From an uncultured Candidatus Peribacteria bacterium (GTDB lineage: Bacteria; Patescibacteriota; Gracilibacteria; UBA1369; GWF2-33-10), in contig CAZEDK010000002.1 of assembly GCA_964511025.1 (NCBI GenBank), forward strand, positions 1-59,147: DNA of 59,147 nt, written 5' to 3'. Shown here in pieces: positions 1 to 59,147 of this stretch; within the stretch, counting starts at the first letter, position 1, and each line of letters begins with the position of its first letter. The notes beneath the pieces were generated by a model. It had not been told where the DNA came from and did not search any database. It saw only the letters and a list, made by a program, of their open reading frames with translations. The translations under genes were made by a program, and so were the position numbers.

Positions 1-361
1 CCGTTAATAATATGCCATTTGTATAAAAATTAATCTTATATGCAGCCTTCTTGTCTTTTGCATATTCAATCATTCGCGGTAGTTCTGGATGCAACAATGG
101 CTCTCCATCCTTATTTATAGTAATTATGAGTCGTTTGCCATAGAGAATGCTCTCGTCAATAACTTTTTGGAAGAGATTAAAATCCATGTAACCAAAAGGT
201 CTATTTAGTTCTCTGGGACACATTGAGCATTGCAGGTTACAATAATTGGTTGGTTCAATATTAAACCGTATAGGAAAATCAAAAGAGATTTTTTTTTGTA
301 AAACCATCCTACGAACAAAGTGAAATCTTTTGAGCTGTTCAATAAACTTAATATCAATCAT
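1..361 (-). CDS. Radical SAM enzyme, N-terminal part only (CDS runs off the window at its 3' end); probably SPASM-type
   Basis: Not in the ORF track. The reverse complement from the ATG at 359-361 reads MIDIKFIEQLKRFHFVRRMVLQKKISFDFPIRFNIEPTNYCNLQCSMCPRE...ITINKDGEPLLHPELPRMIEYAK...FYTNGILL. It has the CX3CX2C cluster motif (CNLQCSMC) and a GEPLLHP motif, and it stays open to position 1. Confidence 0.8.
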   Translation of the reverse strand, partial: MIDIKFIEQLKRFHFVRRMVLQKKISFDFPIRFNIEPTNYCNLQCSMCPRELNRPFGYMDFNLFQKVIDESILYGKRLIITINKDGEPLLHPELPRMIEYAKDKKAAYKINFYTNGILLT

Positions 362-387
362 GTTCAACAAAATAGTATTTACGGGAT

Positions 388-2490
388 TTATTTTACCTTG
401 TAGATAACAGCAGTGCCGAGATTGGGAATACTATAATAATGGACTAGTTCTAGGAAAGAAGCTTTTTGGTAATCTTGAATCAAATTACCTGATTGAAGGG
501 CAGAAATAAAGATATGAGTTACATTGGATTTTTTTAGAATATTGTAAGCGCCTGGCTGTAAAATGTTATTGTAAATGTCAAGTAATTTATTTTTATTTAT
601 TGATTCTCCACCTTTAATTTTCAAATGAAACTCTGCATTTATATCCAATGGTCTGCTACTAATTGCTCTTCTTTCGGCTATAATTGGAGTCCAATCTGTT
701 GTCCAGTATTCTACCCCATTCGCAAGTTTAATGGGGTTTCTAGGATTAAGAATCAAACAATTGTCAAAAGTTGTATTATTACAAAACCACTGAAGTGCTT
801 GATAATCAGTTTCCAACAACCATTCAGGATATCGTAAGTAATTTTTATATTCGTAATATTGAAATATAGACAAAAAAACTATTGAAATAAATAGAGCACC
901 GAATTTTTTAAATGTTGTAATATTTATAAATTTAACAAACCCAAGAACTGTACTTATTGTATAAGCTGCAGCGATGGGAAAAACAATTGTAAAAGACATC
1001 CAACCTACTGAAAAGGTATTTGGATACAAAAATGGTGTTGTAAAACTACCATTAGCTCCTAAAAACCAGTCCGGCCTCGGTGTAAAATGGAACCACCTAA
1101 ATCCTATAAGACGGTAAACCTTCCAATGTATAATCAGTGCAACCATAATCAAGGCATGTGTACCTAAAAAAACCAATATTTTATCTCTGTATACAAAAAA
1201 GATTCCTATCCCTATAAACGATAAAACAAGGAAAATAGGATTATGCCAGTATTTAAGTGTTGGAATTAAATGAGTCGCATACTGACTGAAAAGATTTTCG
1301 AAGTCTACTGTCTTATAACTGCCACTTGCATTCATTAGGGATGGGATAACAATAATAATACATGTAAAAATAGAAACTATTAAAACCGAATAATCTTTAA
1401 AGTAACTTTTGTTTACAGAAATTAAATACAAAAGAAAAAATACTCCAAGAGATATTACAAACCAAAGAAATATATCTGTCTGGCTTAATGCCGACACCGA
1501 AAATACAAATCCGGCTGATATAGCAATAATGGTTGCAAGTTTTCTAGACTTTTCATTTAATGCATGTTGCAAAAGAATTAAAAAACTAGCAATAGAAAGA
1601 TAGCTTAACAGTTCCGTTGTGTTGCCATCGTTATACATTGTTAGATAAGCTTTGTTTAAAGTTAAAATTCCCGCAATAAAAGCCAGTAGCATGTTCCGGT
1701 TAGAAAGAAAATATGCAAGTAAAAAAACTGCTAAGACAAAATAAGCCCCACATACCGCAGTAACGGACATACATTCTTTATAAATTAAAGACATTTTCAT
1801 TTTTGAAAATAATACAACAATTACGTTAAAACAGGGAGGATAATTTATATAAGCTTTTGTTTCATTCAAAAATGGGTAAACAACGGGAAAACCCTGTTTT
1901 TTCATTAAAAGCTGGAGATAACTCGAACCTTGTGCATCAACATCGGGTGGAACATTATTATTGGCCCACATTAAAGAATGCCACAAAAAGGCTATCAATA
2001 AAACAATTACTGGTATACAAATTTCGTTGATATTAATTTCTTTATTTTTAAAACCTATTTTTCTTTTAAACCAGACTAACAGACATATTGGCAATGCAAA
2101 ACCAACAACAAAATAAACCACTGGATTCATTGGAACCCTCAAAAAAGCCATTACTCCCCATAGTCCTGCAGAAAAAGGTAGCCCGAAACACAAGCTCAAA
2201 ATAACCGTTTCTGATATGTTCTTTTCTGAAAATAACAGACGTGAGATAAGTATCCCTAAAGGAAATGTAAAAATTACAATCAGCAATAGAGAAATACTAT
2301 TAGAATAGACATTTTTAGTAGTAAAAGAAAAAAATATTATTAATACAATCTCAATAAAAATTGTTGTGAATAAAATATAACTGTAAATACTTAAATGGCA
2401 TAAATTCTTTTTTTGTTCAATAAGGTTGTTTTTTGGTTGATTTAAAAGAGTATTATTCGACATCTTTGACCTCAACTGATGTGTGCCCAA
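388..2490 (-). CDS. Large polytopic membrane protein with a hydrophilic C-terminal domain; GT-C-like glycosyltransferase or polymerase candidate
   Basis: 700-aa ORF. Roughly the first 540 aa are consecutive hydrophobic helices, followed by a soluble tail of about 150 aa. No family motif was recognised with certainty. The start may be Met10 (2463), which would reduce the overlap with the upstream gene. Confidence 0.6.
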   Translation of the reverse strand: MGTHQLRSKMSNNTLLNQPKNNLIEQKKNLCHLSIYSYILFTTIFIEIVLIIFFSFTTKNVYSNSISLLLIVIFTFPLGILISRLLFSEKNISETVILSLCFGLPFSAGLWGVMAFLRVPMNPVVYFVVGFALPICLLVWFKRKIGFKNKEININEICIPVIVLLIAFLWHSLMWANNNVPPDVDAQGSSYLQLLMKKQGFPVVYPFLNETKAYINYPPCFNVIVVLFSKMKMSLIYKECMSVTAVCGAYFVLAVFLLAYFLSNRNMLLAFIAGILTLNKAYLTMYNDGNTTELLSYLSIASFLILLQHALNEKSRKLATIIAISAGFVFSVSALSQTDIFLWFVISLGVFFLLYLISVNKSYFKDYSVLIVSIFTCIIIVIPSLMNASGSYKTVDFENLFSQYATHLIPTLKYWHNPIFLVLSFIGIGIFFVYRDKILVFLGTHALIMVALIIHWKVYRLIGFRWFHFTPRPDWFLGANGSFTTPFLYPNTFSVGWMSFTIVFPIAAAYTISTVLGFVKFINITTFKKFGALFISIVFLSIFQYYEYKNYLRYPEWLLETDYQALQWFCNNTTFDNCLILNPRNPIKLANGVEYWTTDWTPIIAERRAISSRPLDINAEFHLKIKGGESINKNKLLDIYNNILQPGAYNILKKSNVTHIFISALQSGNLIQDYQKASFLELVHYYSIPNLGTAVIYKVK

Positions 2491-3307
2491 ACTGTTGGAA
2501 TCTGTTAGTTTTCAATTTAACATCACATGGATTGCAATGTCCAAACACATCACAACCACGGAATTTATCTTCTATCACAAAATTTTCATCAAGTATGTTA
2601 CCTATAAACTTTCTACCTTCATAGAGGTCGCTGTGGCATCTGTAAACATCCCCGTTACTTCCAATGATGAGCTCGGTTGTCTTGCATGATACTTTTTTAA
2701 CAAACTTTTTGTCACACGCTCCTTCATAACGATAAGTACCGTACATCACTCCATTATATTCACCAAGAAACTCTTTTGTACGAAAATCTATTCCTAAAGA
2801 GCTACAATATTCCTTCGCCCTTAATATCTCAGCTTCTTGTGCCGGATGCATAACACCCCAAATCCCAATACTAAAACCATTATTTTGGAATTTAAGAACT
2901 TTCTTAACCAACGGTTCAAGTTGCGTGGTTTCAGGATGATAACTAACTCTGATAGAAGCATATGGAGATTTCCTTTTAATCCTGTTTGGATTTACATTAC
3001 GTATAAACGCGTCTTCATCAAATTGTAAATTAGTCAGGATATCAATATTAAGTTCCGATTTTATATTGTTTAATATATGAATAAAATCCTTATGAAGACT
3101 TGGTTCTCCTCCCTGAAGAGAAATGGGAAGATCGTCCCTGGAGACAATTCTATTTAATCCCTTTACCCAGTCTTTTCCAGAAAGGTGTTTTTTTATGAAC
3201 TTACCTTCTTCGAAATAATTAATGCAATAACTGCACTTAAGATTACAGGTAAGGGATAAAAAAACAGCAATGTAATTATAAGATTGTGGAATAATAATAG
3301 GTTTCAT
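2453..3307 (-). CDS. Small radical SAM enzyme with a Cys-rich (twitch/SPASM-like) C-terminus
   Basis: 284 aa. Motifs: LTCNLKCSYCINYF (CX3CX2C), SLQGGEPSLH, and the C-terminal cysteines ...VYRCHSD...GCDVFGHCNPCDV. Confidence 0.8.
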   Translation of the reverse strand: MKPIIIPQSYNYIAVFLSLTCNLKCSYCINYFEEGKFIKKHLSGKDWVKGLNRIVSRDDLPISLQGGEPSLHKDFIHILNNIKSELNIDILTNLQFDEDAFIRNVNPNRIKRKSPYASIRVSYHPETTQLEPLVKKVLKFQNNGFSIGIWGVMHPAQEAEILRAKEYCSSLGIDFRTKEFLGEYNGVMYGTYRYEGACDKKFVKKVSCKTTELIIGSNGDVYRCHSDLYEGRKFIGNILDENFVIEDKFRGCDVFGHCNPCDVKLKTNRFQQFGHTSVEVKDVE

Positions 3308-3419: not shown

Positions 3420-4799
3420 TTATTTGTTTAAATCCATTAACAAATTTTTATAATATATGAATTCGCTATAATCGAAACTATTTGTGTTGTTTCGTTTCAT
3501 CCCAAAAATCTCGGTAAATTTCCTTGTTATCAATTTTAAATTTCGTCGAAAATTAACAACATTAAAAATATTCTGGTTTAATAATATTTTAATAATTCGC
3601 TGGATATTCACCACGTCGTATTCATTTTGAGTTATAAGATTATTCTTAGCCCCTAAACCAACTTGAAATTTAGATATGCCATCTATCATCTCAAGTAAAA
3701 ATTTCTTTTGTGGATTACACCAGATTGCCATCCACATGTACTGGAACCAGTCGTTACTACCCTTAGGGTGAATTACTGCAATTCTAAACAAATTTTCGGC
3801 ATATTCTTTTATCTTTTTTGGGTCTCGTTCTTCAGCAGGAATTCTTTCAACACAAACTTCTAACCAATTCCTCCCAGATGCATCAACACTTGTAATATCA
3901 GGATTAATTCGAAAGTACTTAAGTTTCCAATAACTATCAAGTACTGGGCAAATAAGGTTACCGTCATCATAACTTGTTTCACAATATATTTGTTTATTAA
4001 CTAAAAAATAATTCCAACTATAAAACATTTTAACATTAATAATGCCTTGAATAAAATTCATCCAGAATTTTACGGCTTCCCCTGTCATTTCCTGTAAACT
4101 GCCCGTGTTTATTAAAAGATCAAAATCTTCCTGAGCTATTGTATGACAAAACTGAACAGGTACAAAAACAAAATCATATTTGTCTAAATTCACTCTATTG
4201 TTATCTTTTATATATATAGTTTTTGCATCAGGAAAATTTGTAGCTATAAAAACCTGTGCAAAAAAAAGCGATTCAGGCAGATCAATCATTACATAATGTA
4301 TAGATCGGTTCATAATCTTAAATATTCTTGCTAATCCCCCATACCCACTACCAATTTCTATAATTCTTTTAGGCCCAAATTCATAATCAAATGTATATAC
4401 ACTTCTTAAATAAATATTTACATGTGTTAAAAAAATATTACTAAATTTAAACCCATCAATAATTTCACTGGTTCTTTTGTCGGAATAAATCGATTCTTCT
4501 AAACCATTTTCAAACGCCTTTTTAAAATTAAACCATGGGAAAAGACGCTCCAATTCTCTCATTTTGAAATCAATTACACCTCTAACATTCCCTCTGCGAT
4601 GATCAAATCCTACTTTGGAACTATTTTGCGCATACAATATTGCCTCATCGCAGGTTTTGAAATTAATTATATCTCTACTAATATTTCTCCTATTGCTATC
4701 CCACCATGTACTTATTGTAAAATCATTCGGATACTCAATTTTCTCAACATCCTTATAACAACTTATTGCAAATTTTAAAATGTTATTATACTTAGTCAT
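3420..4799 (-). CDS. Class I SAM-dependent methyltransferase-like protein (putative sugar O-methyltransferase)
   Basis: 459 aa. A Gly-rich SAM-binding motif (IIEIGSGYGGLARIF) is followed by an acidic beta-2 end (VMIDLPE). The long N- and C-terminal extensions have unknown function. Confidence 0.55.
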   Translation of the reverse strand: MTKYNNILKFAISCYKDVEKIEYPNDFTISTWWDSNRRNISRDIINFKTCDEAILYAQNSSKVGFDHRRGNVRGVIDFKMRELERLFPWFNFKKAFENGLEESIYSDKRTSEIIDGFKFSNIFLTHVNIYLRSVYTFDYEFGPKRIIEIGSGYGGLARIFKIMNRSIHYVMIDLPESLFFAQVFIATNFPDAKTIYIKDNNRVNLDKYDFVFVPVQFCHTIAQEDFDLLINTGSLQEMTGEAVKFWMNFIQGIINVKMFYSWNYFLVNKQIYCETSYDDGNLICPVLDSYWKLKYFRINPDITSVDASGRNWLEVCVERIPAEERDPKKIKEYAENLFRIAVIHPKGSNDWFQYMWMAIWCNPQKKFLLEMIDGISKFQVGLGAKNNLITQNEYDVVNIQRIIKILLNQNIFNVVNFRRNLKLITRKFTEIFGMKRNNTNSFDYSEFIYYKNLLMDLNK

Positions 4800-4917: not shown

Positions 4918-6321
4918 TTAGATAAGTTCCAGAACCAATTTGCATAATGTTTCACTTAATTGTGCCATTAAAAAGCCTTTTTTTCGCATGTTAACAAAGA
5001 ATTCATTATTCTCAATGGCATTATCAATCTTTTCTAATAGCTTTCTCACCATAGGGTCTCTAGGTAAAAAGCGCACAGGAATACGAATTATTTCTGATTT
5101 AGTACCATTTATTGACGGTATAGTATTACACTTGTATTCGACAAGATCCCAGTGATCATAATACCAAGAACCAGCATAAGCCTTAATAAACGGTTCAACT
5201 GTAACTGTATTTCTTTTGTTTTGTAAAATTTTTAAACAAAATTCTGCTGTTCTCTTCACATCGTCTACTTCTGCCTCAGGCTGGCAAAGGATAATATTAA
5301 TATGAACTGGAAGATCAACGGCACGAGTAATTTCAAGAAAATTATCTACATCTTTTACGCGTTGTCCTTTACGAATCTTTTTCAATAGCGAATCTGAATA
5401 CGACTCTATACCACAAGAAAGCTTTCGGAAACCGGCACGTTTCATTACATCCAGCACTTCTGCATCAAAGTCAGTAATCCTGGAAGAAGCAACATATGTT
5501 ACTTTAATGCCTTCTTTAATTGCAAGATTACACCACTCTATAGTGTTTTGGCGGTTATGACATGCATTGTCATCGTGGAAATAGATTGTCTTAGTTTCTG
5601 GAACCTGCGTCAGTACCCTTTTTAAAATGTTTACTAATTCTCTGGGAGGCAGAGTAACCACTTTTGTTCCTGCTGGAACTGCCTGCCGGATGAAACGTGT
5701 AGTTGAACAAAACTTGCATCCTTGAGGGCAATAATTAGTAATATAAAGATTTATACAATTCGTGCTGACCACATCACCACTCGTAACAGTGGAATTACGC
5801 TTCCAATATTCCTTTATTGGTAATTTACTTAGATCTACGCTTGTCGCCCTAACGAGTTCGTCCATTGTTAAAACAGTTGAAAAGGAAAAGTCTTTCGCTA
5901 ATGTACTCGGTGGAAGTTTTAAGTGAACACGCCCTTCTAAAAAGTATTCCAATGCTTTTTCACCCTCTCCCATTATGATGTAGTCAGTCACATCTAGATC
6001 AAGTAATTGTTGATAATTGCAAGTTGCTTCAACACCACCCAACACAATCATTGTATGAGGAAAAAGTTTTCTGGCATAACGCATCAATGCAACGTCATTA
6101 TGAAGGTTATCTTTCGTAGGAGAAAACCCAATAACATCATAGTTCCCGCAATTTTCTAAATAAGAAACAGGATCTTCTACATTAGGATCGAGTACATTTA
6201 CATCGTGTTTATCTTTTAGCCAATGCTGGATGCGGTAAAGCCCCATCGGTGGAGAGAGATAATATCCAAGGACTTTTTTATCATTAGTCCACGAAGAAAC
6301 TAGCAAAAGACGCTTTCTCAT
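4918..6321 (-). CDS. Class B (B12-binding domain) radical SAM enzyme
   Basis: 467 aa. The N-terminal region looks Rossmann-like (RLLLVSS...GLYRIQHWL...DVIGFS...IVLGGVEAT), followed by YITNYCPQGCKFCST (CX3CX2C). Confidence 0.8.
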   Translation of the reverse strand: MRKRLLLVSSWTNDKKVLGYYLSPPMGLYRIQHWLKDKHDVNVLDPNVEDPVSYLENCGNYDVIGFSPTKDNLHNDVALMRYARKLFPHTMIVLGGVEATCNYQQLLDLDVTDYIIMGEGEKALEYFLEGRVHLKLPPSTLAKDFSFSTVLTMDELVRATSVDLSKLPIKEYWKRNSTVTSGDVVSTNCINLYITNYCPQGCKFCSTTRFIRQAVPAGTKVVTLPPRELVNILKRVLTQVPETKTIYFHDDNACHNRQNTIEWCNLAIKEGIKVTYVASSRITDFDAEVLDVMKRAGFRKLSCGIESYSDSLLKKIRKGQRVKDVDNFLEITRAVDLPVHINIILCQPEAEVDDVKRTAEFCLKILQNKRNTVTVEPFIKAYAGSWYYDHWDLVEYKCNTIPSINGTKSEIIRIPVRFLPRDPMVRKLLEKIDNAIENNEFFVNMRKKGFLMAQLSETLCKLVLELI

Positions 6322-6349: not shown

Positions 6350-7138
6350 TTAAGAACAAATCTTGTTCGTCAAAATTCGCTCTAGTTTTTTCCTTCTAAA
6401 TGCTGTAACTGAAGATGCATCCAACTCTTTTGGTTGTTCAGAAAACAACAACTCCGCTAGTAACCTACTCATATTTAATGAAAGGTTTAGTATGCTTTTA
6501 ATACTAAAAGCTTTAGATTTTCCAGATGCCCGTGGACGTGTATAATACGGCACCTCAGCATACAGGTAGCCACGGCGAACAGTCTTACATAAAAGTTCAG
6601 TTTGATAAAAAAACCCGTGACTTTTCAGCTTAATATCTTTAAGAATAGAACGTCTATATAATACCAGTCCATTTGAGTGATGAACATTAAGTCCAAATAA
6701 AATTCTTATCATAAATGTATAAATACCCGACATTAACCTGCGGAACGGAGAACGAACTGTCTCGTTTACAATAAAGGGCACAACAATATCAACATTTGAA
6801 AGCTCATGAAGGTACAAGAGCATTTCTGCAGGGAGCATCTCATTATCTCCTGGATATAATACCACTGCCTCGTTATTCGCCCTTGACACACCCTCCCAAA
6901 AAGAATAACCTATTCCTTTGGGAGTATCATGATGAATTACAAAGATTCTTTTATCTGTTTTTCGTAGTTCCTCCGCAATATTTCCAGTATTGTCAGTACT
7001 TCCATCGTTAACTATAATAAGTTCTCCATTAACATTAGCTTCGTCCAGCGCCCTAATAGTACACTCAACTGCCGCCTTAATATTACCTTCTTCATTAAGT
7101 GCAGGCATAACAATTGTTATATTGACATTAAAATTCAT
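6350..7138 (-). CDS. GT2 glycosyltransferase, Dpm1-like (polyprenyl-phosphate sugar synthase type), no TM tail
   Basis: 262 aa. Motifs: ITIVMPALNEEGNI, LIIVNDGSTDNT, and a DxD-like YPGDNEM. Confidence 0.75.
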   Translation of the reverse strand: MNFNVNITIVMPALNEEGNIKAAVECTIRALDEANVNGELIIVNDGSTDNTGNIAEELRKTDKRIFVIHHDTPKGIGYSFWEGVSRANNEAVVLYPGDNEMLPAEMLLYLHELSNVDIVVPFIVNETVRSPFRRLMSGIYTFMIRILFGLNVHHSNGLVLYRRSILKDIKLKSHGFFYQTELLCKTVRRGYLYAEVPYYTRPRASGKSKAFSIKSILNLSLNMSRLLAELLFSEQPKELDASSVTAFRRKKLERILTNKICS

Positions 7139-7177
7139 ATTAAAGTTTTGCTATGAAGAATACTACACAAATATTTG

Positions 7178-8281
7178 TTAAATGAAATTTATATGCATCG
7201 GCGGGTTAACATCTTCTCTTTTTAAAATGGCATTTTCGTGCTTTAAAGTCCATAAACACTCATTTACTTTATGTTGTAAGCATAAGGAACCGCACATTGT
7301 TCTTGCGTCAAATTTTTCTGACGCAATTAAATTAATTACTTCCCAATAACGATCACCCTGCCAGATTTTTTTAAATGGAGTATCAACAATGTTGCCAATA
7401 TGATACTTCTTATATCTATCATTAAAAAGCATACCGCATGGTACTACTAATCCTGACCCTGAAAACTGCATAATAAAAGGAGGTCCATAACAACGACTAT
7501 AATTACGTTTCCCACCACTTAAGATTTTAGACCACTTAGCCTTTACAAGATATTTGTCATCTGAATATGTTTCTGCCTCCTTTAATATATCCACCATGTC
7601 ATTGTATTTTGAATAATCTACACCAAGGGTTCCCATTTCATCATCACTACAATGCTTTATAACCAGATAATCAACGCCTAGTTTCTTTCCAAGATTTGAT
7701 AAAGGAATAACCTGATCTACCACCTCCGGCAACAGTATCATTTGTAAACCAATCGTTACATCAAGATTTTTCTCATGCTTTATTTTTACACATGTCTTTA
7801 TTGTATTTATAATCTTAAAATAACATTCTTTTTTACAAATGTGAATGGCAGCGTATTTGTCAGCTTCTGCGGCTGAAATATTAAATCTGAGATATGTCAA
7901 AGCCGGCAGGATATCCTCCAATCGTTCTTCTTTCAGAAGGTAGCCATTTGTACCCAAAGCCATATCTAAGCCGTTTGACTTTCCCCTTAAAATAGCGTCA
8001 TACAAATGGGGAGAGCAAGTACTCTCGCCATCGCTTACAAAACTGATTGCTTTTACCCCAATTTCTGCTGCATCATCAAGAAACCTGAAAATAACATCTT
8101 TGGACATACGCTTCTCATCATTCGTCTGAAGCATACCATAACAATAAATACATCTGTATGTGCATCTTCGAGTCAAAGCACAGTCAATAGTAATGGGCGC
8201 AATCCTCTCGCCTCTTAACCACGTATCAACTCGGTTTTTATGCCAGGCAAGCTTATGCCCATCAAGAACTATCTCGCCCAT
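7178..8281 (-). CDS. Radical SAM enzyme (twitch/SPASM-like), paralogue of 9705..10823
   Basis: 367 aa. Motifs: ALTRRCTYRCIYCYG (CX3CX2C) and C-terminal cysteines (CYGPP...VVPCG...CGSLCLQ). It shares N-terminal HKL.xH..RV..WL.GE.I.PI and a C-terminal H(I/V)NFI end with the 372-aa paralogue. Confidence 0.8.
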   Translation of the reverse strand: MGEIVLDGHKLAWHKNRVDTWLRGERIAPITIDCALTRRCTYRCIYCYGMLQTNDEKRMSKDVIFRFLDDAAEIGVKAISFVSDGESTCSPHLYDAILRGKSNGLDMALGTNGYLLKEERLEDILPALTYLRFNISAAEADKYAAIHICKKECYFKIINTIKTCVKIKHEKNLDVTIGLQMILLPEVVDQVIPLSNLGKKLGVDYLVIKHCSDDEMGTLGVDYSKYNDMVDILKEAETYSDDKYLVKAKWSKILSGGKRNYSRCYGPPFIMQFSGSGLVVPCGMLFNDRYKKYHIGNIVDTPFKKIWQGDRYWEVINLIASEKFDARTMCGSLCLQHKVNECLWTLKHENAILKREDVNPPMHINFI

Positions 8282-8359
8282 TTGTTCTCCCCATTTCTAT
8301 CATCTTTTTATTTACTATAACATTTTATTCCACAAGCTATATTCTTTTGCCAGTTATAC

Positions 8360-9665: not shown

Positions 9666-9704
9666 TTAATATCATTTATTGTTTGCTTAAAATTATCAAA
9701 AAAG

Positions 9705-45777: not shown

Positions 45778-45807
45778 ATTTATTTTATCTTTCCTGATAC
45801 CGTAAAT

Positions 45808-46824: not shown

Positions 46825-46865
46825 ATATTAATTCAGTGTCTAATCTACTCCCAGAGTATTCTTTC

Positions 46866-47978: not shown

Positions 47979-48049
47979 ATCAGTTTGCTCAAATAAGAGA
48001 GTTAGGGAATTTCACCATAATATAACGCTAAAATTAACTTTTATTAGCG

Positions 48050-50082: not shown

Positions 50083-50097
50083 AATTTTTATGTCGGT

Positions 50098-51090
50098 TTA
50101 TTTTACAACTGTTAGGGCCTTCCACTCACATCGTTTTAATTCTTCTCTCCAAAAGGACAACATATCACGTAATGTCCTTTCCAATGGAATATTCGGTTCC
50201 CATCCAGTTTCATCTCTGAACTTGTCTATACAGGGTATCTGTAAGGTAACGTCTGAAGGCCGCAGGAGCCGGGGATCGACCCTGATCTCAAACTTTGTTT
50301 TGGAAAAAGATAGCAATATTTCCAATGCCTCACCAATAGTTGTAGTACGGTTTCCCCCTATATTATATACTTCACCCGGCTTACATCTATTCACTAAAAT
50401 CCAGTACGCCCTAACAGCATCTCTCACATCACAAAAAGTTCGCACTGATTTTAAATTCCCCACCTGTATGACGGGTTCTGTTAATCCCAATTCTCCTGCT
50501 GCTGCTTGCTTGGCAAAAAATGACATTGCAAAGACATCTCCTCTTCGGGGACCGGTGTGGGTAAACATCCTAGTACGAATGGTTTTTACATCGTACGAAA
50601 GCCAATATTGTAATGCAACCATGTCCTCGCCTACTTTACTGACTGCGTAAGGAGAAGCGGGTCTGAAAGGGCATGTCTCTTTAATTGGCACGTCTGTTTC
50701 AGTTACCTGTCCATAAACCTCTGATGATGAACATATATGAATAACTGGATTAATTTCTACAATTCTAACCGCCTCGAGTAAATTTGTTGTACCAATCACA
50801 TTTGACCAAAGAGTTTGTATTGGTGAATTGAAACTCGTTAATACATAACTTTGAGCTGCTAGATGAAAAATAATATCTGGTTTAATCTCCTTGAAATGCC
50901 GAATTAACGCGCTCAAATCACAAAGATCTGCATCAAGGAGTGTAACTTTATTATAAATTTTCTCTAGATTGTCTCTTGGACTTCTCCATCTGCACAGCCC
51001 ATATATTTCATGTCCTTCGTTCAAATTAAGAATATATTCTGCAAGATGGCTTCCGACAAAACCTGTTATACCTGTAATCAATAATTTCAT
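50098..51090 (-). CDS. Gmd/Rmd-family extended SDR (GDP-4-keto-6-deoxy-mannose reductase or NDP-sugar dehydratase-like)
   Basis: 330 aa. Motifs: MKLLITGITGFVGSHLAEY, SSSEVYG, and the canonical YAVSK. Confidence 0.65.
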   Translation of the reverse strand: MKLLITGITGFVGSHLAEYILNLNEGHEIYGLCRWRSPRDNLEKIYNKVTLLDADLCDLSALIRHFKEIKPDIIFHLAAQSYVLTSFNSPIQTLWSNVIGTTNLLEAVRIVEINPVIHICSSSEVYGQVTETDVPIKETCPFRPASPYAVSKVGEDMVALQYWLSYDVKTIRTRMFTHTGPRRGDVFAMSFFAKQAAAGELGLTEPVIQVGNLKSVRTFCDVRDAVRAYWILVNRCKPGEVYNIGGNRTTTIGEALEILLSFSKTKFEIRVDPRLLRPSDVTLQIPCIDKFRDETGWEPNIPLERTLRDMLSFWREELKRCEWKALTVVK

Positions 51091-51128: not shown

Positions 51129-52415
51129 TTACGAAATAAAATAATCATGCGAATATTGAAAATTTCTTACAATACTCTTCATATCATCTTCCATTTCTTG
51201 TATTGCGACCTGGGGTATAAAATTTTTTTCATAGGTCATACGCGCATTATATTCTATTTTCCTTCTCAATTGCTCATCCTTGATAACTTTGATTATAAGT
51301 TCAGGTAATTCTCGAATGTCATTTGCTATAAGGGCATTTTCCATATTCATTAATTCAGGCCGCGAGTTTTTTTCAAAAATTGTTGTAACTATACAACATC
51401 CATAAGCCAATCCCACAATAATCCTCGCTCTAGAACTTAATTGAACGGGCGTTGGAACAAGTAATAAATCGGCTGATAAAAAGTCCTCGCTAACATTATC
51501 AACATAACCACGTAATATTATCGATGGCTTATTTAAATTTTCTTTAAATTCTGGCGGGATAGTAACGTTCCCAATTAAATGTATCTCGAAAGTATCCTTC
51601 CCAAGTTTTTCTTCGAGATGTGGTAATATATGCTTAGCAAGCACTTTATAATGTAAATAGGTAGCAGTACCTACTGCTCCTACCATAATAATTTTAGGTT
51701 TTTTATTACTGGCCTGGGCTTTTTCCTTGAGATCCTGCCAATTCTCGCCTACCGGATCTATACACGGCGCTTTATAGTATTTACAATCCGAAGCTCCCAA
51801 CCTTTTGAAACTCTCAACGTAATCAAGAGCAACTTGCCCATACGCTTGACATGCTGAGTAAGCTTTTACTATTTGTTTTAACACGCTGCGAGAATTTAAA
51901 ATATTTATAAAATACCTTATGTACTCAGAGACATTAGGAGGAACCTTTCTTTTACATCGCAACATAGTAAAAAGCCACATGAATGGATTTTCACACAATG
52001 GAGATATCCTCGGAACTGTTTTGATACCTTGCGTAACACAAATTGCCGCCAACCCGAATGCAACAATGATATGCGGGCGTAATTGCTCTACGTATTTTTC
52101 AATCACATTTCTGATTTCTTTTCTGTAAGATACGGTATGATAATAATCTTCAATTTTTGGTTTAAGTATTCTTAATAGTTTTGACCGCCTGAGACGATGC
52201 GGCGCTACATCGAAGAGCGAAATGACCGTAACTCCTAACGAAGACAAGATTTTAATATGTTCCTCCCTATCATCGGGTTCCCAGCTCGGAGGATTTACTA
52301 TTGCAGTTACTTTGTGACCGACACTCAAAAAATACTGGATCAATGTCCAGCCATGAATACACGAACCACTTTTCCCATTAAATGGAATATCCTCGCCAAT
52401 ATAAAAAATGTGCAC
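51129..52415 (-). CDS. GT-B fold glycosyltransferase (GT4-like, divergent)
   Basis: 428 aa. The N-terminus IFYIGEDIPFNGKSGSCIHGWTLIQYFLSVGHKV is typical of GT4. The C-terminal half is divergent, with no clean EX7E motif seen. Confidence 0.5.
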   Translation of the reverse strand: MHIFYIGEDIPFNGKSGSCIHGWTLIQYFLSVGHKVTAIVNPPSWEPDDREEHIKILSSLGVTVISLFDVAPHRLRRSKLLRILKPKIEDYYHTVSYRKEIRNVIEKYVEQLRPHIIVAFGLAAICVTQGIKTVPRISPLCENPFMWLFTMLRCKRKVPPNVSEYIRYFINILNSRSVLKQIVKAYSACQAYGQVALDYVESFKRLGASDCKYYKAPCIDPVGENWQDLKEKAQASNKKPKIIMVGAVGTATYLHYKVLAKHILPHLEEKLGKDTFEIHLIGNVTIPPEFKENLNKPSIILRGYVDNVSEDFLSADLLLVPTPVQLSSRARIIVGLAYGCCIVTTIFEKNSRPELMNMENALIANDIRELPELIIKVIKDEQLRRKIEYNARMTYEKNFIPQVAIQEMEDDMKSIVRNFQYSHDYFIS

Positions 52416-52419
52416 AGAA

Positions 52420-53541
52420 TCACAACCTCATGGATAACTTAGAAAAGTAAATAAACCTTCTCTGAAATACTTTGAATAACGATATACATATACCAAAAAT
52501 ATTTTTACTATGCAGGAATTCCCATTTTTTTGGAATTATCCATTCTTTTAGAATTTTTCGTCTTTCAGGCAAAGGTATATTTTCAACATAACCAAATTCT
52601 TTTGCATAATTGTAAGTCAAATAAACAATTAAATCGCGCTCACATGGAGATAAAAATTCATCATACTTGAAAATGTTTTTCATATTTGAAATAACTTCTA
52701 CTGGTGTTTCAACACCAACTTGACCAACATTTACAGGTAGTTTTTTGATACTTTTCCCTCCTAATACTGTTTGTTTTGTTGGACTTTTTGGCAGTGGAAG
52801 TCCCAACCAAGAACAAACAGACTCTATAGTGTCTAAAGGGACTCGGACCAAATCCTCAAATCGGACAACATAATGATTTTTTAAGTCTTTTCTGTCTAAA
52901 ATATTTCTTGCATGAATAATCCATCGCTTATTTATCATAGTATTCAGACTATCCCCACCTAAATGCCATAACGGTTTTCTTGCCGGACAAATTTTTTGTC
53001 GTGTCGCTCTAATTAATGAAGCATATACATCAATAGGATTCCTGATTATATGTATAAATTTCATATCAGGAAAAATTTCTTCATAATAGCGGATATAAGG
53101 AACTTCTATAGTTTTAAACATATAAGTAGTAACAGCCTTGTTATTATTTATCCACTTTGACATAACCTTTAAGAATAACATAATAAAATTACGTGGCTTA
53201 TATTCTGGCTCGAAGTTTAAAGCCTGAAGAGGATTCACATCCAAATTTATGCTGATATCTTCTTCTAATTTAGCCACATAGTCTGACAATATCTCTTTTA
53301 CATGGTAACTATAATTATCTATTAATAATTTATTTTCAATATCTCTATCAAGATATTTTAATGGTTCTGTTCTTGCATAATGTTTAGTCTTTTTAGAAAT
53401 ACGACCTTTGGATGCTAAATCATCTAAAGCAGTCAGAAAAATCACTTCAACAGGATGTACATATGTGTCTGGTATCCCATCCAGTAGTCTTGTTATTAGA
53501 GTACTACCATTCCTACCCGTTCCGAATATGCCTACTAACAT
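52420..53541 (-). CDS. Sulfotransferase-family protein
   Basis: 373 aa. IFGTGRNGSTLITRLL is a 5'-PSB-like P-loop, and IIRNPIDVYASL is a 3'-PB-like motif. Confidence 0.65.
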   Translation of the reverse strand: MLVGIFGTGRNGSTLITRLLDGIPDTYVHPVEVIFLTALDDLASKGRISKKTKHYARTEPLKYLDRDIENKLLIDNYSYHVKEILSDYVAKLEEDISINLDVNPLQALNFEPEYKPRNFIMLFLKVMSKWINNNKAVTTYMFKTIEVPYIRYYEEIFPDMKFIHIIRNPIDVYASLIRATRQKICPARKPLWHLGGDSLNTMINKRWIIHARNILDRKDLKNHYVVRFEDLVRVPLDTIESVCSWLGLPLPKSPTKQTVLGGKSIKKLPVNVGQVGVETPVEVISNMKNIFKYDEFLSPCERDLIVYLTYNYAKEFGYVENIPLPERRKILKEWIIPKKWEFLHSKNIFGICISLFKVFQRRFIYFSKLSMRL

Positions 53542-53561
53542 ATTAAACTCTTATAAAATTA

Positions 53562-54578
53562 TTAAAATATCTTGATTTTCCTGAGAATATTAAACACTTC
53601 GTACGGTATCTGATTCCATACATTGCGCACCCTTCGTATAGTCCACTTCCTACTTAGAGTAATCTCAATCTGTTCAATTTCATCGCTGCAAATCAATTTT
53701 GCATCGCGCATAAGACTTAGAGCAAAAGATTTGAACCCAAGACAAAGACTGATGATAGAAAGTCTATGAAGGTCTAAAGGTGTCAAATCGAAACGATCTG
53801 GATCTAACGCAAAAAAAGCGTCCCCAGCACAAATCATACGTCTATCTGCATGTTTGGTAATTATATGTTTTCCACGACTATACCGCGGATGGTCTAAATC
53901 TAAATCTAAAAGCCTATAGCCATGCTCATGCAAGAAAACATGTTCATGCCCTAATAAATGGTTTTCCTGAAAATGTGGAGTAACCATAAACTCTGTTTTT
54001 ATAAATAAAATATTATGAGCTTTTAACAGTTTATCTGCCCCCCTTAACACACACATATCTGCACCTTCTGTATCAATTTTTAAGAAATCCACTTTTTGCT
54101 TTGGATCTAATATTTCATCAAGACGACGGCATTGCATAGGAATAGTGTTAATAACTTGAGCATGTAATTCCTTGTATGGTTTGTTGTTTTTGTCTAACCA
54201 CATGTTTTTTGCAACCTTATTATCAGTACTCCCCATCAGTGTGCAAGTAGCTGGTCCTGTCGTTACAAAAAAAGACCTCACTTCTTCTTTGTCCCATAAA
54301 GCACAATTATGATACTGTACTGATTTGAATGATGGCATATTAATGCCGGCTCTCATAGCATCGGTGCTATTTGAAATAAGTTTCTCGTATTCCGCCGGAT
54401 GCGGTTCAAAGCCAATAATCTCTGAGCGCTTAGCATAAGTTGGAGGTATCAAAAACATCCCATTACGTGCACCAACGTCAACTACAGTAAAATTTACACC
54501 GGTTTTGTCAATCGGGTAAAACACAATATCTCCGATAGTTCTGCCTGATGGAGTTTTATAAAGAAACGGTTCCCTCAA
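53562..54578 (-). CDS. FkbM-family SAM-dependent methyltransferase
   Basis: 338 aa. Motifs: VVDVGARNGMF, IIGFEPHP, and FLKIDTEGADMCVLRGA. Confidence 0.8.
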   Translation of the reverse strand: MREPFLYKTPSGRTIGDIVFYPIDKTGVNFTVVDVGARNGMFLIPPTYAKRSEIIGFEPHPAEYEKLISNSTDAMRAGINMPSFKSVQYHNCALWDKEEVRSFFVTTGPATCTLMGSTDNKVAKNMWLDKNNKPYKELHAQVINTIPMQCRRLDEILDPKQKVDFLKIDTEGADMCVLRGADKLLKAHNILFIKTEFMVTPHFQENHLLGHEHVFLHEHGYRLLDLDLDHPRYSRGKHIITKHADRRMICAGDAFFALDPDRFDLTPLDLHRLSIISLCLGFKSFALSLMRDAKLICSDEIEQIEITLSRKWTIRRVRNVWNQIPYEVFNILRKIKIF

Positions 54579-54631
54579 ATTCTTACCCTTTCAGTAATTT
54601 GACCCACAAACGCCTGCATTATATCTGTGAC

Positions 54632-56071
54632 CTACTGTCCCTTTTCTTTCAATGCTAGTATATTAATAAATATTTTTTTACGAATGGACATAAACACATC
54701 GAATAGACCATAATACTCAACTACTAAAAAAGATGTTGCCAAACATCCAAATACCTTTTCCATTAAATCAAATTTAATTAGAGTATTCGCAATATATAGT
54801 CCAAGAATCATAGCTAATACAATTAAAAAATCTTTTCCAGCAAATTTACCACATCCCAACTTTCTTGCATAAATTAAGCGTGATGATTGAATTATAAAAT
54901 TTAATAAAACAATAGCTACGGCAGCTCCTATTATTCCAAAATAATAAATAGAAATTGCTGTAACACCGATAAATGAAACATTCGTTATTATCCCTGAATA
55001 CATCAAAAAGGCATTCTTTTTATTAACGAGGAGAAACTGGGTATATGGCACACCGTAAGTGGAAAAAAGGTGAAACAGAAACCACAACGGAATCAATGGT
55101 GCAGCGGCTACAAATTTCCCATGTGTTAAAATATTAACAATTTCATAAGAAAATAATGTCATAAAAATACCTGTAATACCCAGCAACCCATACCATTTTC
55201 TAAGTTTTATATTAAAACTTTTATGATCCAAATCTTTTGAAAATATTTCTGTTATTTGAAGACCAAATGTCCTGGAAAATGCCTTAATAGCCATTGCAAA
55301 AATATTCTTGTAGTTTAATGAGTGAGAATAAATACCAAGTTGCGGTAAATTAATCCACTTCTGAATAAAATAGCGGTCTGTCACATTTGTAACCATCTCC
55401 AGCAAATTATATGGCACGGAGGGTATTCCAACCACAAAAACCTCACGAGACCATTTCCTGCTTATTTTAGGAATAATATAGTTTCGTATATACCATAACC
55501 CCGCAATAAACGAAAATAATCCAGCGGCTATCGGACTTAAAAATAATGTTATTATTGATAGTTTGAATAAAACTAAGCAAATGATCGTCGTAAGAGCACC
55601 AAATGCCCATTGAGAAAATTCAAGGAAAGCGTAAACTCTTCCCTTCTGTTGGAATACAATTAAACATGAAATCGAAGGCCAAAATGTCATTAATAATATA
55701 GACACTAATATCAACTTAAAATAAAGTACATGTTTAACCTCAAATTCTTTTATTATTACAGGAAGTAATAAGGGCGCTGATAACCAAAATACTAAAACCC
55801 AAAAAATTTTTAGCGCAAAATCCAATAACAAGAGATTGAAAAATAAAACTTTTCTTTCATTGTCATCTATTTTATAAAAATTACCAGCCAAGACCCACGC
55901 TATTCCAGTAGAAGCAAGGGGGCCTATGGGTATTGTTATAGCATTTAAGATGGCAAAAATACCGAAATCCTTAGGATTAAGATAATACGTAGTTATAGGC
56001 ACCATCACAAAAGCACCTATAATGCCCATACCTATTGAAGGTAACAAATAATATAAAAAGTTTTTTTGCAT
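54632..56071 (-). CDS. wzx: Wzx-type oligosaccharide flippase (MOP/PST superfamily)
   Basis: 479 aa. There are about 12-14 TM helices along the whole length, and the N-terminus YYLLPSIGMGIIGAFVMVPITTYYLNPKDFGIFAI is typical of polysaccharide-biosynthesis flippases. Confidence 0.7.
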   Translation of the reverse strand: MQKNFLYYLLPSIGMGIIGAFVMVPITTYYLNPKDFGIFAILNAITIPIGPLASTGIAWVLAGNFYKIDDNERKVLFFNLLLLDFALKIFWVLVFWLSAPLLLPVIIKEFEVKHVLYFKLILVSILLMTFWPSISCLIVFQQKGRVYAFLEFSQWAFGALTTIICLVLFKLSIITLFLSPIAAGLFSFIAGLWYIRNYIIPKISRKWSREVFVVGIPSVPYNLLEMVTNVTDRYFIQKWINLPQLGIYSHSLNYKNIFAMAIKAFSRTFGLQITEIFSKDLDHKSFNIKLRKWYGLLGITGIFMTLFSYEIVNILTHGKFVAAAPLIPLWFLFHLFSTYGVPYTQFLLVNKKNAFLMYSGIITNVSFIGVTAISIYYFGIIGAAVAIVLLNFIIQSSRLIYARKLGCGKFAGKDFLIVLAMILGLYIANTLIKFDLMEKVFGCLATSFLVVEYYGLFDVFMSIRKKIFINILALKEKGQ

Positions 56072-56217
56072 AGAATTGCCAAACTAAGTTTTTAAATTTT
56101 CACCGTCACTGACATAATCATTGATTGCTGGCAAAAAATCTCAAAAATATTTCATTCTTTTTCACTCTTATAAGATATACAGTTTGCTTTTTAAACATAT
56201 ACACTTTTTTATTTACC

Positions 56218-57225
<1,008 letters not shown>

Positions 57226-57495
57226 CTATGTATAGACCTAGATTAAGGTTTTTAGGTCAAGCCTTTTTTCTAAAGGAATAGGAAATATAGAGTAAGTGGT
57301 AAGGACTAGGCAGAAAGCAGGCAAAAGATCATATCCTGTTTGGTATTACGATTGTTTCTTACAAATTTTTCTAATTATTTGTTCTGTAAGGGAAAATCTT
57401 TCCTCTTTTAGAAAATACTTTGTTTCTTCTAATATTTCCATTGTTAATTCATATACAAGATTATACACATTAAGACCTTGTTACCTTTATACTGC

Positions 57496-58626
57496 CTACT
57501 CCTTACTATCCACAGTCTCCAGCATCCAATCAATTCCTTTTTGTTTCAGTATCTTTTCACTTTCGCCAATCGGATTTAAGCCAACTAGCTTCATATCTGA
57601 ATCAACCATGATTTTGACAAGTTCTTGAAAAGTAACTCTTGACATCCATCCTAATTTATTTTGTGCCTTTGTAATATCAGCACATAAAAAATCTACTTCT
57701 GTAGGTCTAAAGTATCTTGGATCTATTTCAACGATAACTTCTCCGGTTTTTAAAGAAAAGGTTGAGGCTGAGGAGCAAATGATGCCTTTTTCTTTTGCCC
57801 CCCTTTCTTTCCATTCTAATTCAACACCAACGTGTTTGAAGGCGAGTTCTACGAATTCTCTCACAGAATGACTTTCACCGGTACCTATTACGTAATCATC
57901 TGGACTATCCTGTTGGAGCATTAGCCATTGACATACCACATATTCAGGCGCAAAACCCCAATCTCTTTTGGCTTCCAAGTTGCCAAGGTATAGCTTCTTC
58001 TGTTTTCCGGCAACAATGTTTGCTACTGCCCTTGTTATTTTTCTTGTTACAAAAGTCTCACCTCTCCTTGGTGATTCATGATTAAAGAGGATTCCATTAC
58101 AAGCAAACATATTGTATCCATCTCTGTAGTTAACAGTCATCCAGTAGGCATAGACCTTGGCTGCAGCGTAAGGACTCCTCGGCCTAAAATGTGTCTCCTC
58201 ATTCTGAGGAGCCTGAGCATCTCCAAACATTTCACTGCTGCTGGCTTGATAAAATTTGGTTTTAATGCCACTCCTTCTCACGGCTTCTAACAACCTCGTA
58301 GTTCCCAGACCGCTGATATCCCCGGTAAATTCTGGCATATCAAAACTAACACGCACATGGCTCTGTGCTGCTAAATGGTAAACTTCATCTGGTTGGATAT
58401 TATATATGAGATTAGTTATCTGGCTCGAATCAGAAAGGTCTCCATAATGAAGAAAAAGTCGTACATTGGGGTTATGTGGGTCACGATAAAGGTGATCAAT
58501 CCTGTCGGTGTTAAAGGTACTGGAACGACGAATAAGACCGTGAACTTCGTAACCCTTTGATAGGAGAAATTCTGCCAGATAGGAACCGTCCTGCCCTGTA
58601 ATTCCTGTTATGAGTGCTCTTTTCAT
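57496..58626 (-). CDS. gmd: GDP-mannose 4,6-dehydratase
   Basis: 376 aa. Motifs: [79 protein letters not shown]. Confidence 0.95.
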
Positions 58627-58644
58627 ATATAAATAAATTCTTAT

Positions 58645-59147
58645 CTAAATCCTGATATCAACAACTTTAGTGCAGTCCGGTATCTGTTGTACTTTCTCAA
58701 CATCCAATTCTTTTGTTAGCAAGAGAAAGTCGGGGATGTATGTATTTATCTCCTCGATACCTATTACATGATACCCAAATATCCTTATCTTCGTTTCATC
58801 ATCGACAATTGCAACAAGTTCCAGTTCTTTATCCTGGATAACAAGATAAGCCAACTCCATCAAATCTGTAACTCCGTAAAGAGCAACTCGTTTTTTGTCA
58901 TTAAATGGAATACTGCCAATCTTGTCTTCAACATCTTTCCGAACTGCCTTATAGAAATGAAAATTTCTGTCAAAAAATTTATATGCCAGTTGTGTTTTCT
59001 CTGCAATCCCTTTTGGCGTTAAAATATATTTCATCCTCCTAGAATTTACCCCCAACATCTTTACCAGTCCTCTTTTAGTAAGCTTTTTTAACGCAAAATT
59101 TATTGACGCAACATTAATACCCATCTGCGACGATAACTGACGTTGAG
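58645..59147 (-). CDS. MarR-family, EPS-associated winged-helix regulator fused to a Rossmann-like C-terminal domain; 5' end lies outside the window
   Basis: The frame stays open upstream of the tracked Met to the window edge (..QRQLSSQMGINVASINFALKKLTKRGLVKM..), which matches the wHTH core of EPS-type MarR regulators. The C-terminal part, RVALYGVTDLMELAYLVIQDKELELVAIVDDE...IFGYHVIGIEEI, resembles the N-terminal Rossmann-like module of NeuD/PglD or polyprenyl-P sugar transferases. Confidence 0.65.
   Translation of the reverse strand, partial: QRQLSSQMGINVASINFALKKLTKRGLVKMLGVNSRRMKYILTPKGIAEKTQLAYKFFDRNFHFYKAVRKDVEDKIGSIPFNDKKRVALYGVTDLMELAYLVIQDKELELVAIVDDETKIRIFGYHVIGIEEINTYIPDFLLLTKELDVEKVQQIPDCTKVVDIRI

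Follow-up and report, generated by a model that had tools for sequence, protein, structure and literature searches.

To our knowledge, tailoring of sugars by radical S-adenosylmethionine (SAM) enzymes is hardly documented outside antibiotic pathways, and the diversity of surface glycans is ascribed to short-chain dehydrogenases/reductases (SDRs), aminotransferases, and acyl- and O-methyltransferases. The subject of the present analysis is a glycan locus that fills a 59,147-bp stretch of DNA (hereafter, the window) from an uncultured Candidatus Peribacteria bacterium (GenBank assembly GCA_964511025.1, contig CAZEDK010000002.1) and that contains twelve radical SAM genes. Their products were designated B1 to B7 for the long proteins, assigned to the B12-binding class B architecture, and S0 to S4 for the shorter ones (Table 1); loci with which the window was compared are designated L followed by a number.

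Among described enzymes, the methylases GenK/GenD1 and MoeK5 and the diol dehydratase AprD4 share with the class B proteins an N-terminal Rossmann domain and CX3CX2C barrel and are likewise encoded beside carbohydrate enzymes. The window differs from their settings in being a surface-glycan locus with a Wzx flippase and neuABC rather than an antibiotic cluster, and in bringing seven class B subfamilies together. The best curated families for most class B proteins were HpnJ (TIGR03471), for which rearrangement of a glucosamine unit has been proposed, and BchE (TIGR02026), at 73–188 bits. Membership of these families would require 578 and 481 bits, respectively, and is thus not reached, and there were no hopanoid or bacteriochlorophyll genes near the class B genes of the window. 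The SPASM proteins of the window matched known enzymes (BtrN, BlsE, DesII, MoaA and viperin) at the domain level only.

Partial likenesses to described systems were also noted in other parts of the locus. Thus, a dehydratase, an E1 alpha/beta pair and an aldo-keto reductase (AKR) formed a set shared, in gene content only, with the AviB1/AviB2, Pau11/Pau12 plus Pau7 and yersiniose systems, but in the window this set was tied to B6, a GHMP kinase and RmlC, and no such partner is described for the Pau/Avi antibiotic pathways. Similarly, two family 2 glycosyltransferases (GT2) matched ArnC/PgfS of Arn/PgfS-type lipid-linked modification, each beside a large polytopic membrane protein, but their partners were AsnB and class B radical SAM enzymes instead of ArnA, ArnB and ArnD. 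The Campylobacter GDP-heptose pathway employs an HddA kinase, a GMD-like dehydratase, an RmlC-like epimerase and fcl-like C4 reductases, and is not known to include radical SAM or thiamine enzymes. The enzyme types of this Campylobacter jejuni toolkit recurred at 39270–51090 (HddA-like kinase, GMD-like SDR, RmlC and three fcl-like SDRs), but the scores were sub-threshold except for RmlC, and GmhA, GmhB and HddC were absent from the window.

Each type of component is known, whether sugar-directed radical SAM enzymes of antibiotic pathways, thiamine diphosphate (ThDP)-dependent formation of branched sugars, Arn/Pgf transfer or neuABC. As far as the literature was searched, neither the combination of these components in a primary surface-glycan locus nor the three cross-phylum modules reported below have been described. 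In the open-access literature, no described pathway was found with radical SAM/B12 enzymes in an O-antigen, capsule, nucleotide-sugar, Omnitrophota or anammox context, which is weak evidence; the capsule region of C. jejuni HS:19 holds single unannotated 'radical SAM' genes, and reviews of class B enzymes list antibiotic sugar methylases (PMC12931638).

Radical SAM proteins and their glycan setting

The window was tiled by 47 complete open reading frames (ORFs) of at least 150 aa and one partial ORF (1–361), all on the minus strand and of uniform G+C content (0.31–0.38). CX3CX2C was confined to 11 complete ORFs and the partial one, which reads CNLQCSMC, and the 11 motif-bearing proteins compared with a mean of 0.12 (maximum of 3 in 2000 shuffles) after each protein was shuffled. 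In agreement with these counts, a preliminary description of this DNA, made from the sequence alone, had reported the motif in 12 minus-strand genes. All 12 proteins also scored above the gathering threshold of PF04055 (33–90 bits versus 29.5), the narrowest passes being those of S1 (33.0 bits) and the S0 fragment (33.5 bits). The 11 complete genes together accounted for 14.1 kb of the 59 kb.

Assignment of all seven long proteins to class B, as claimed in the preliminary description, was supported for six of them by PF02310 (B12-binding; 52–78 bits versus 32.1), and for B3 also by a model of its fold, but B7 fell below the PF02310 threshold (21.7 bits). Likewise, the reported sequence context (S/G)RGCxxxCx(F/Y)C was seen in six of the seven, the exception being B1, which reads TNYCPQGCKFC. 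Twitch/SPASM-like C-termini had been ascribed to the five short proteins, and S2, S3 and S4 indeed passed PF13186 (35.5, 31.7 and 62.2 bits versus a cutoff of 21.5), but S1 did not match this profile and offered only a cluster of six C-terminal Cys residues (C198, C208, C224, C252, C258 and C261) and a weak match to the SPASM region of a SCIFF maturase; the C-terminal part of S0 falls beyond the window edge.

Results of Pfam and NCBIfam searches indicated that the locus is a cell-surface glycan biosynthesis island. Thus, gmd/fcl, neuABC, glycosyltransferases (two GT4, four GT2 and one GT9-like), a sulfotransferase, methyltransferases and Wzx were all recognised, the last (54632–56071) by PF13440 (33.4 bits versus a cutoff of 23) and by approximately 10 transmembrane segments. 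The genes for NeuB (PF03102, 263.6 bits), NeuC (PF02350, 280.1 bits) and NeuA (PF02348, 83.3 bits) were adjacent (26108–28977). The glycan setting had been read correctly from the sequence, although the earlier gene list omitted a split transketolase, the E1 pair, the AKR, two AsnB proteins and the GHMP kinase. Taken together, gene content and order make it probable that the window carries a co-directional surface-glycan island of several modules, in which enzymes that activate and transfer sugars are coupled to uncharacterised radical SAM tailoring enzymes. The glycan in question could be the O-antigen of lipopolysaccharide, an exopolysaccharide (EPS) or an S-layer protein glycan.

Radical SAM modules shared with other phyla

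Comparison of gene neighbourhoods indicated that orthologues of B3, B6 and S3/S2 keep sugar-pathway neighbours in other phyla, so the link with glycan tailoring, as predicted from conserved gene order, is more than co-location. The three modules tie specific radical SAM subfamilies to specific predicted sugar-pathway enzymes, an association that is new here. The evidence that radical SAM enzymes tailor the glycan is indirect but good.

Orthologues of B6 (50–57% identity) were found in the same sugar-nucleotide module on three unrelated contigs (L090, L091 and L092). In L092, the dehydratase, E1 alpha, E1 beta, SDR, RmlC, SDR, B6 and GHMP kinase were 65, 62, 70, 49, 67, 62, 50 and 66% identical to the corresponding proteins of the window and were followed by an NTP_transferase, while in L090 and L091 B6 was accompanied by subunits of an E1 or transketolase enzyme and by genes for an SDR, a GHMP kinase and an NTP_transferase. 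In all three loci the GHMP kinase gene lay beside that of a PF00483 sugar-1-phosphate nucleotidyltransferase; because the window has no PF00483 gene, the activating nucleotidyltransferase must be encoded elsewhere. Unlike the conserved B6, B7 was lineage-specific.

The E1 pair and the AKR of this module were recognised by Pfam profiles (E1 alpha, PF00676, 173 bits; E1 beta, PF02779, 107 bits, and PF02780, 113 bits; AKR, PF00248, 225 bits), and the E1-like pair (48050–50082) was preceded by the 4,6-dehydratase and followed by the AKR in an unbroken row (46866–51090). The enzyme set matches that proposed for octoses with an acetyl or hydroxyethyl branch at C-4 (Pau11/Pau12/Pau7 and AviB1/B2). 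By analogy, this arrangement suggests a branched sugar like yersiniose or paulomycose; in the route proposed for the latter, Pau11/Pau12 attach an acetyl branch which the AKR Pau7 reduces (PMC4753412). Branching, which the preliminary description had ascribed to radical SAM enzymes, would thus be explained more economically by the E1 alpha/beta and AKR triad. In the working model for 51090–39270, a hexose or heptose would be activated by the GHMP kinase and the nucleotidyltransferase, the 4,6-dehydratase would form the 4-keto sugar, E1 alpha/beta would add a two-carbon acetyl branch from pyruvate, the AKR would reduce the branch, and RmlC and the fcl-like SDRs would set the stereochemistry. 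B6 and B7 would then catalyse a radical step on the nucleotide sugar, for which methylation of an unactivated carbon is the single most likely reaction, with a roughly even chance of being correct.

S3 was 66–89% identical to proteins of Brocadiales, Scalindua and Omnitrophota, the best named homologues being from Candidatus (Ca.) Wunengus, Brocadiales and Ca. Scalindua (Brocadiia). Whereas the mechanically called S3 ORF has 372 aa, all 120 best homologues have approximately 355 aa and cover 95% of this ORF, so the true start is probably Met18 (coordinate 10772). The split transketolase was kept beside S3/S2 in L010, L093 and L094. In L094, where the order was GT9, S3, S2, N- and C-terminal transketolase subunits, GT2, radical SAM gene and S1, identity with window orthologues was 45–85% over seven genes. 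In L093 (Ca. Scalindua sp., GCA_031316235.1, 4.15-Mb contig), an HldE-like gene, S3, the two transketolase subunits, a TylF methyltransferase, S2 and further SPASM and methyltransferase genes were present. Weak matches to the core of S3 were BlsE, viperin, MoaA and DesII; among the short radical SAM proteins, NCBIfam scores reached 35–48 bits for DesII (cutoff of 450) and 41 bits for BlsE (cutoff of 400). In the working model for 13100–1, S3, S2, the split transketolase, GT2, B1, the O-methyltransferase, S1 and S0 would build and attach a modified and possibly chain-extended sugar.

A separate observation on L093 (1–21068) was that the S3/S2 module was flanked by the HldE-like heptose kinase/adenylyltransferase and that 21 kb held seven methyltransferase genes. 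This setting hints at a heptose as the substrate of the S3/S2 module and at an unusual abundance of methylation genes in anammox glycan loci.

The B3 family is large (4342 matches below 1e-10 among 8000 candidates scored), with named members in Omnitrophota, Elusimicrobia, Thermodesulfobacteriota, Spirochaetes, Magnetococcales and a contig labelled Bathyarchaeota; an exact-sequence look-up with B3 itself returned no match. In 89 loci taken from genome and metagenome collections, B3 orthologues of 60% identity or more, wherever their flanks were included, always adjoined an ArnC-like GT2 or lay within 6 kb of one, AsnB was near most of these orthologues, and a class I methyltransferase adjoined several; the contigs concerned were attributed to Omnitrophota, Proteobacteria, Bathyarchaeota and others. 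Within the window, this ArnC-type arrangement occurred twice, once as methyltransferase, B3, membrane protein, AsnB and GT2 and once as AsnB, membrane protein, GT2, B5 and B4. For both ArnC-like GT2s, which have C-terminal transmembrane segments and are ArnC/PgfS-like, the best match was NF007986 (222 and 175 bits, below the ArnC cutoff of 529).

Two of three large polytopic membrane proteins (388–2490, 19486–21258 and 34546–37062; 700, 590 and 838 aa; 9–13 hydrophobic segments) adjoined these GT2 genes. The 590-aa protein was kept beside B3 in L003, L010 and L011, while in the related loci L091 and L082 a PMT_2 GT-C protein took the membrane-protein position. The three proteins gave no Pfam match even at E<5, no NCBIfam match and no PDB sequence match, and BLASTP revealed no likeness to each other or to the PMT_2-like protein of L091, and none showed a GT-C signature; a single-sequence AlphaFold model of 19486–21258 (pLDDT of 41.8) was too poor for use. 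All three are candidates for transferases or polymerases of an undescribed kind that act on glycans, and could fill a polymerase or GT-C role in this locus. In the model for 23386–16645 and 39053–30494, the ArnC-like GT2 would load a sugar onto polyprenyl phosphate, AsnB would amidate a carboxyl group, B3 (or B4/B5) and the class I methyltransferase would tailor the polyprenyl-linked sugar, and the adjoining membrane protein would transfer the tailored sugar to the glycan at the outer face of the membrane.

The gene for S4, whose C-terminus aligned with the auxiliary-cluster domain of BtrN (E 1e-11), lay directly upstream of neuA, neuB and neuC, and in L092 SPASM enzymes were also paired with NeuB and a cytidylyltransferase. 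For 30174–23397 it is proposed that neuABC would make a CMP-nonulosonic acid and that S4 would modify this product or a precursor of it.

From the three modules it is tentatively proposed, with doubt slightly outweighing belief, that B6, S3/S2 and B3 catalyse undescribed radical reactions on nucleotide- and polyprenyl-linked sugars and so supply anaerobes such as anammox planctomycetes, Omnitrophota and Elusimicrobiota with envelope sugars that are C-methylated, branched or chain-extended and lack an aerobic counterpart. Such reactions could be the source of unidentified residues like the 174-Da unit that accompanies methylated HexNAc in the S-layer O-glycan of the anammox bacterium Kuenenia (PMC5088730). 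As methyl positions in that glycan were deduced from mass alone, there is room in it for C-methyl or branched sugars. Should the twelve enzymes, or just the three modules, act on envelope sugars, this would mean that anaerobes have a large unexplored glycan chemistry (C-methyl, deoxy, rearranged and extended sugars), would add new families of enzymes that functionalise C-H bonds in carbohydrates, and would explain the resistance of envelope and EPS glycans of anammox bacteria and uncultured anaerobes to compositional analysis. The modules provide concrete enzyme-substrate hypotheses that are open to test.

Several findings weigh against the reading of the window as a surface-glycan island with radical SAM tailoring. 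First, all 12 radical SAM proteins scored below the cutoffs of the curated NCBIfam families, so that homology assigns a reaction to none of them, and the best structural match of B3 was a dehydratase, AprD4, rather than a methylase. Second, Pfam and NCBIfam searches recognised no initiating phosphoglycosyltransferase, Wzy/ligase or PF00483 nucleotidyltransferase in the window, although the first of these may be encoded outside it, and the three polytopic membrane proteins resisted family classification. Third, an Elusimicrobia orthologue of B3 (L008/L026, 10001–11455, 58% identity) stood alone among genes for RadC, SpoU methylase, RNase III, acyl carrier protein and PlsX, so the B3 family is not confined to glycan islands; B3 orthologues in L029 and L031 were also found among housekeeping genes, without glycan context.

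Class B chemistry and origin of the locus

The preliminary description had attributed C-methylation, branching and deoxygenation to the radical SAM enzymes, an attribution that is not supported in view of the missed family cutoffs and the best structural match of B3 to a dehydratase. Thus, against characterised families (HpnR, HpnJ, BchE, PhpK, AprD4, MgmA/QCMT, KedN5 and TsrM), the best scores of the class B set were 25–188 bits, compared with cutoffs of 251–775. The top sub-threshold NCBIfam matches were HpnJ, BchE, ApyD, PhpK-type P-methylases and AprD4, the last at 35–117 bits, and scores for rSAM_ladder_B12 were 49–113 bits. A PDB search with a profile of the seven proteins placed AprD4 at the top and also found OxsB, TsrM, TokK, CysS and 9CCB, which is MgmA/QCMT (PMC12931638). 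In agreement with this ranking, an AlphaFold model of B3 (38 homologues, pLDDT of 91.8) was superposed on AprD4, TsrM, MgmA, OxsB, CysS and TokK with template modelling (TM) scores of 0.62–0.72, AprD4 being the best match (TMq 0.72) and cobalamin enzymes next. Identity to any solved or curated member was 16–20%.

It is accordingly a serious possibility, though short of a probable one, that the class B enzymes are not cobalamin C-methyltransferases and instead catalyse diol dehydration or deoxygenation (as AprD4), ring contraction or rearrangement (proposed for HpnJ, shown for OxsB), or epimerisation or oxidation of sugars. Consistent with such reactions are the prominence of HpnJ, BchE and AprD4 among the matches, the failure of B7 at the B12-binding threshold and the fact that the locus already encodes three or more methyltransferases of conventional type (Methyltransf_11, FkbM and NanM-type). 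The AprD4 structure, a sugar diol-dehydratase, is reportedly without bound cobalamin, so possession of a class B fold is not by itself a sign of methyl transfer. Nor are class B enzymes known to share any one sequence motif by which they bind cobalamin. On the other hand, PF02310 was passed by six of the seven proteins, and the majority of characterised class B enzymes are methylases (PMC12931638). In addition, scores for P- and C-methylase families (PhpK, Sden_1168, ApyD and HpnR) were in the same range as those for non-methylases, so homology favours neither reading. As judged from these comparisons, C-methylation, dehydration and rearrangement are all candidate reactions for the radical SAM set.

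Recent tandem duplication as the origin of the seven class B genes was considered and rejected; pairwise identity among their products was 20–31%, and they are therefore regarded as distinct old subfamilies. A different question is whether the island, instead of making one heavily tailored glycan, has accreted from separate cassettes for different sugars or glycoconjugates that are swapped by recombination, with the density of radical SAM genes a by-product of stacking, a reading that is plausible and yet somewhat doubtful. Evidence of stacking was obtained around B2. The 5' end of S3 (10715–10792) recurred, frameshifted and with 79–84% identity, at 13245–13321, 2529 bp away and upstream of B2, and the approximately 2.5-kb segment that carries B2 was absent from L010 (81% nucleotide identity) and L094, two close and colinear relatives that run directly from GT9 to S3. 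As judged from this arrangement, B2 is a presumptive cassette insertion in this lineage, or was lost in others, and the duplicate is a presumptive recombination scar. The inserted segment includes 800 bp between B2 and S3 (10824–11621), the only long non-coding gap of the island, in which there was no convincing ORF and no Rfam match; a promoter/terminator scan around B2 performed no better than a shuffled control.

Exchange of modules was also evident elsewhere. In L003, the B3 block was 78–88% identical to that of the window but stood beside a different neuABC set (43–47%) and another class B gene, the order of genes was S3, transketolase, S2 in the window and S3, S2, transketolase in L094, and modules were found separately in other phyla. 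In contrast, the single strand, tight gene spacing, uniform G+C content and single Wzx fit one co-regulated locus; moreover, accretion is compatible with a surface-glycan island of coupled modules, which is still the preferred explanation. The missing B2 segment in L010 and L094, together with retention of the B3 block beside a different neuABC in L003, indicates that the locus is, on comparative grounds, a mosaic of apparently exchangeable cassettes that recur in metagenomes, and that radical SAM density is partly accretion.

These results also bear on the earlier claim that the window is a candidate undescribed system whose radical SAM density has no characterised parallel. That no characterised precedent exists agrees with the literature searched, but a denser array was found in L082 (Ga0302253_1000087, 6706–19301), where seven class B genes surround a PMT_2 GT-C protein within approximately 13 kb and a DegT sugar aminotransferase stands at the end. 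Four to six class B genes were counted in several other loci. Arrays were also noted in L058/L086, L076 and L062; these arrays, L082 included, held four to seven genes in 13–21 kb, and enzymes of L082-type arrays were distant from those of the window (approximately 30% identity). In L002 (a Proteobacteria metagenome-assembled genome, MAG), four radical SAM genes occurred with a GHMP kinase, RmlC, a split transketolase, GT2 and AsnB within 21 kb.

That the radical SAM enzymes act on lipids of ladderane or hopanoid type, on cofactors or on peptides, with glycan genes merely co-located, is improbable. Sub-threshold matches to rSAM_ladder_B12, HpnJ, HpnR and maturases of ribosomally synthesised and post-translationally modified peptides point in this direction, as do the B3 orthologues outside glycan loci and the unusual lipids made by the probable host clade, but all these scores were far under the family cutoffs, B6, S3/S2 and B3 keep nucleotide-sugar or polyprenyl-sugar neighbours across phyla, and no precursor-peptide or fatty-acid-synthesis genes were recognised by Pfam in the window. 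A ladderane or hopanoid lipid role was rejected as the principal explanation on the same grounds of family scores and conserved sugar-enzyme neighbours. Production of a secreted oligosaccharide or aminoglycoside-like natural product is very unlikely; the closest characterised relatives of several parts do come from antibiotic pathways (AprD4, BtrN, DesII, BlsE and Pau/Avi E1-like proteins), but Wzx, neuABC, ArnC-like transferases, GT9 and a sulfotransferase are present in the window, and no aminocyclitol synthase, resistance gene or exporter was recognised there by Pfam or NCBIfam.

Gene inventory of the window

Table 1. Features of the 59,147-bp window, in order of position
Position	Strand	Feature	Support
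1–361	minus	S0, radical SAM protein truncated by the window edge; first 120 aa present, with CNLQCSMC	PF04055, 33.5 bits
388–2490	minus	Polytopic membrane protein of 700 aa with about 13 hydrophobic segments, family not recognised	
2453–3307	minus	S1, 284-aa radical SAM protein, C-terminal Cys cluster; L094 orthologue 83% identical	
3420–4799	minus	NanM-type putative sugar O-methyltransferase	TIGR04371, 80.9 bits, cutoff 44
4918–6321	minus	B1, class B (B12-binding + radical SAM) enzyme	
6350–7138	minus	GT2 glycosyltransferase	Pfam
7178–8281	minus	S2, radical SAM/SPASM enzyme; 30% identical to its paralogue S3	
8360–9665	minus	Split transketolase-like thiamine enzyme: N-terminal subunit 8850–9665, pyrimidine-binding subunit 8360–8857	
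9705–10823	minus	S3, radical SAM/SPASM enzyme; probable true start 10772	
11622–13100	minus	B2, class B radical SAM enzyme, on the approximately 2.5-kb insertion	
13245–13321	minus	Degenerate, frameshifted duplicate of the S3 5' end (copy of 10715–10792)	
13420–16324	minus	GT9-like, GT4 and GT2 glycosyltransferases	Pfam
16645–17604	minus	ArnC-like polyprenyl-phosphate glycosyltransferase (GT2, C-terminal transmembrane segments)	
17591–19507	minus	AsnB-type glutamine amidotransferase 1	
19486–21258	minus	590-aa polytopic membrane protein, family not recognised	
21200–22657	minus	B3, class B radical SAM enzyme	
22661–23386	minus	Class I SAM methyltransferase (Methyltransf_11), often adjoining B3 orthologues	
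23397–28977	minus	Nonulosonic-acid block: 548-aa Capsule_synth-like protein, LegB-like SDR, NeuC, NeuB, NeuA	
29044–30174	minus	S4, radical SAM/SPASM enzyme; C-terminus matches BtrN auxiliary-cluster domain	
30494–31948	minus	B4, class B radical SAM enzyme	
32096–33532	minus	B5, class B radical SAM enzyme	
33558–34520	minus	Second ArnC-like GT2	
34546–37062	minus	838-aa polytopic membrane protein	
37128–39053	minus	AsnB amidotransferase 2	
39270–42259	minus	HddA-like GHMP sugar kinase and two fcl-like SDRs	
42413–43744	minus	B6, class B radical SAM enzyme; central to the module shared with L090, L091 and L092	
43852–44364	minus	RmlC-type 3,5-epimerase	TIGR01221, 158 bits, cutoff 155.75
44452–45777	minus	B7, radical SAM enzyme, N-terminal B12-binding-like domain sub-threshold	
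45808–51090	minus	fcl-like SDR, aldo-keto reductase, E1 beta, E1 alpha, GMD/RmlB-like 4,6-dehydratase	
51129–59124	minus	GT4, sulfotransferase, FkbM methyltransferase, Wzx flippase, fcl-like SDR, gmd, 159-aa protein	

At Rfam gathering thresholds, no RNA family, including cobalamin and SAM riboswitches, was detected in the window. Three plus-strand ORFs of 206–232 aa (31230–31928, 41187–41834 and 50030–50650) lay wholly antisense to B4, an SDR and E1 alpha/dehydratase, respectively, and are probably spurious. The nearest public DNA was a 5-kb contig from a groundwater MAG labelled 'Planctomycetota', on which the proteins of four genes were 91–96% identical to those of the window. As judged from named best matches rather than a phylogeny, the host would probably be an anaerobic planctomycete of the class Brocadiia, with kinship to anammox bacteria. 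In the order of transcription, the island starts with the gene (58645–59124) for the 159-aa protein, which gave a weak winged-helix match (17 bits) and may be a regulator of the locus.

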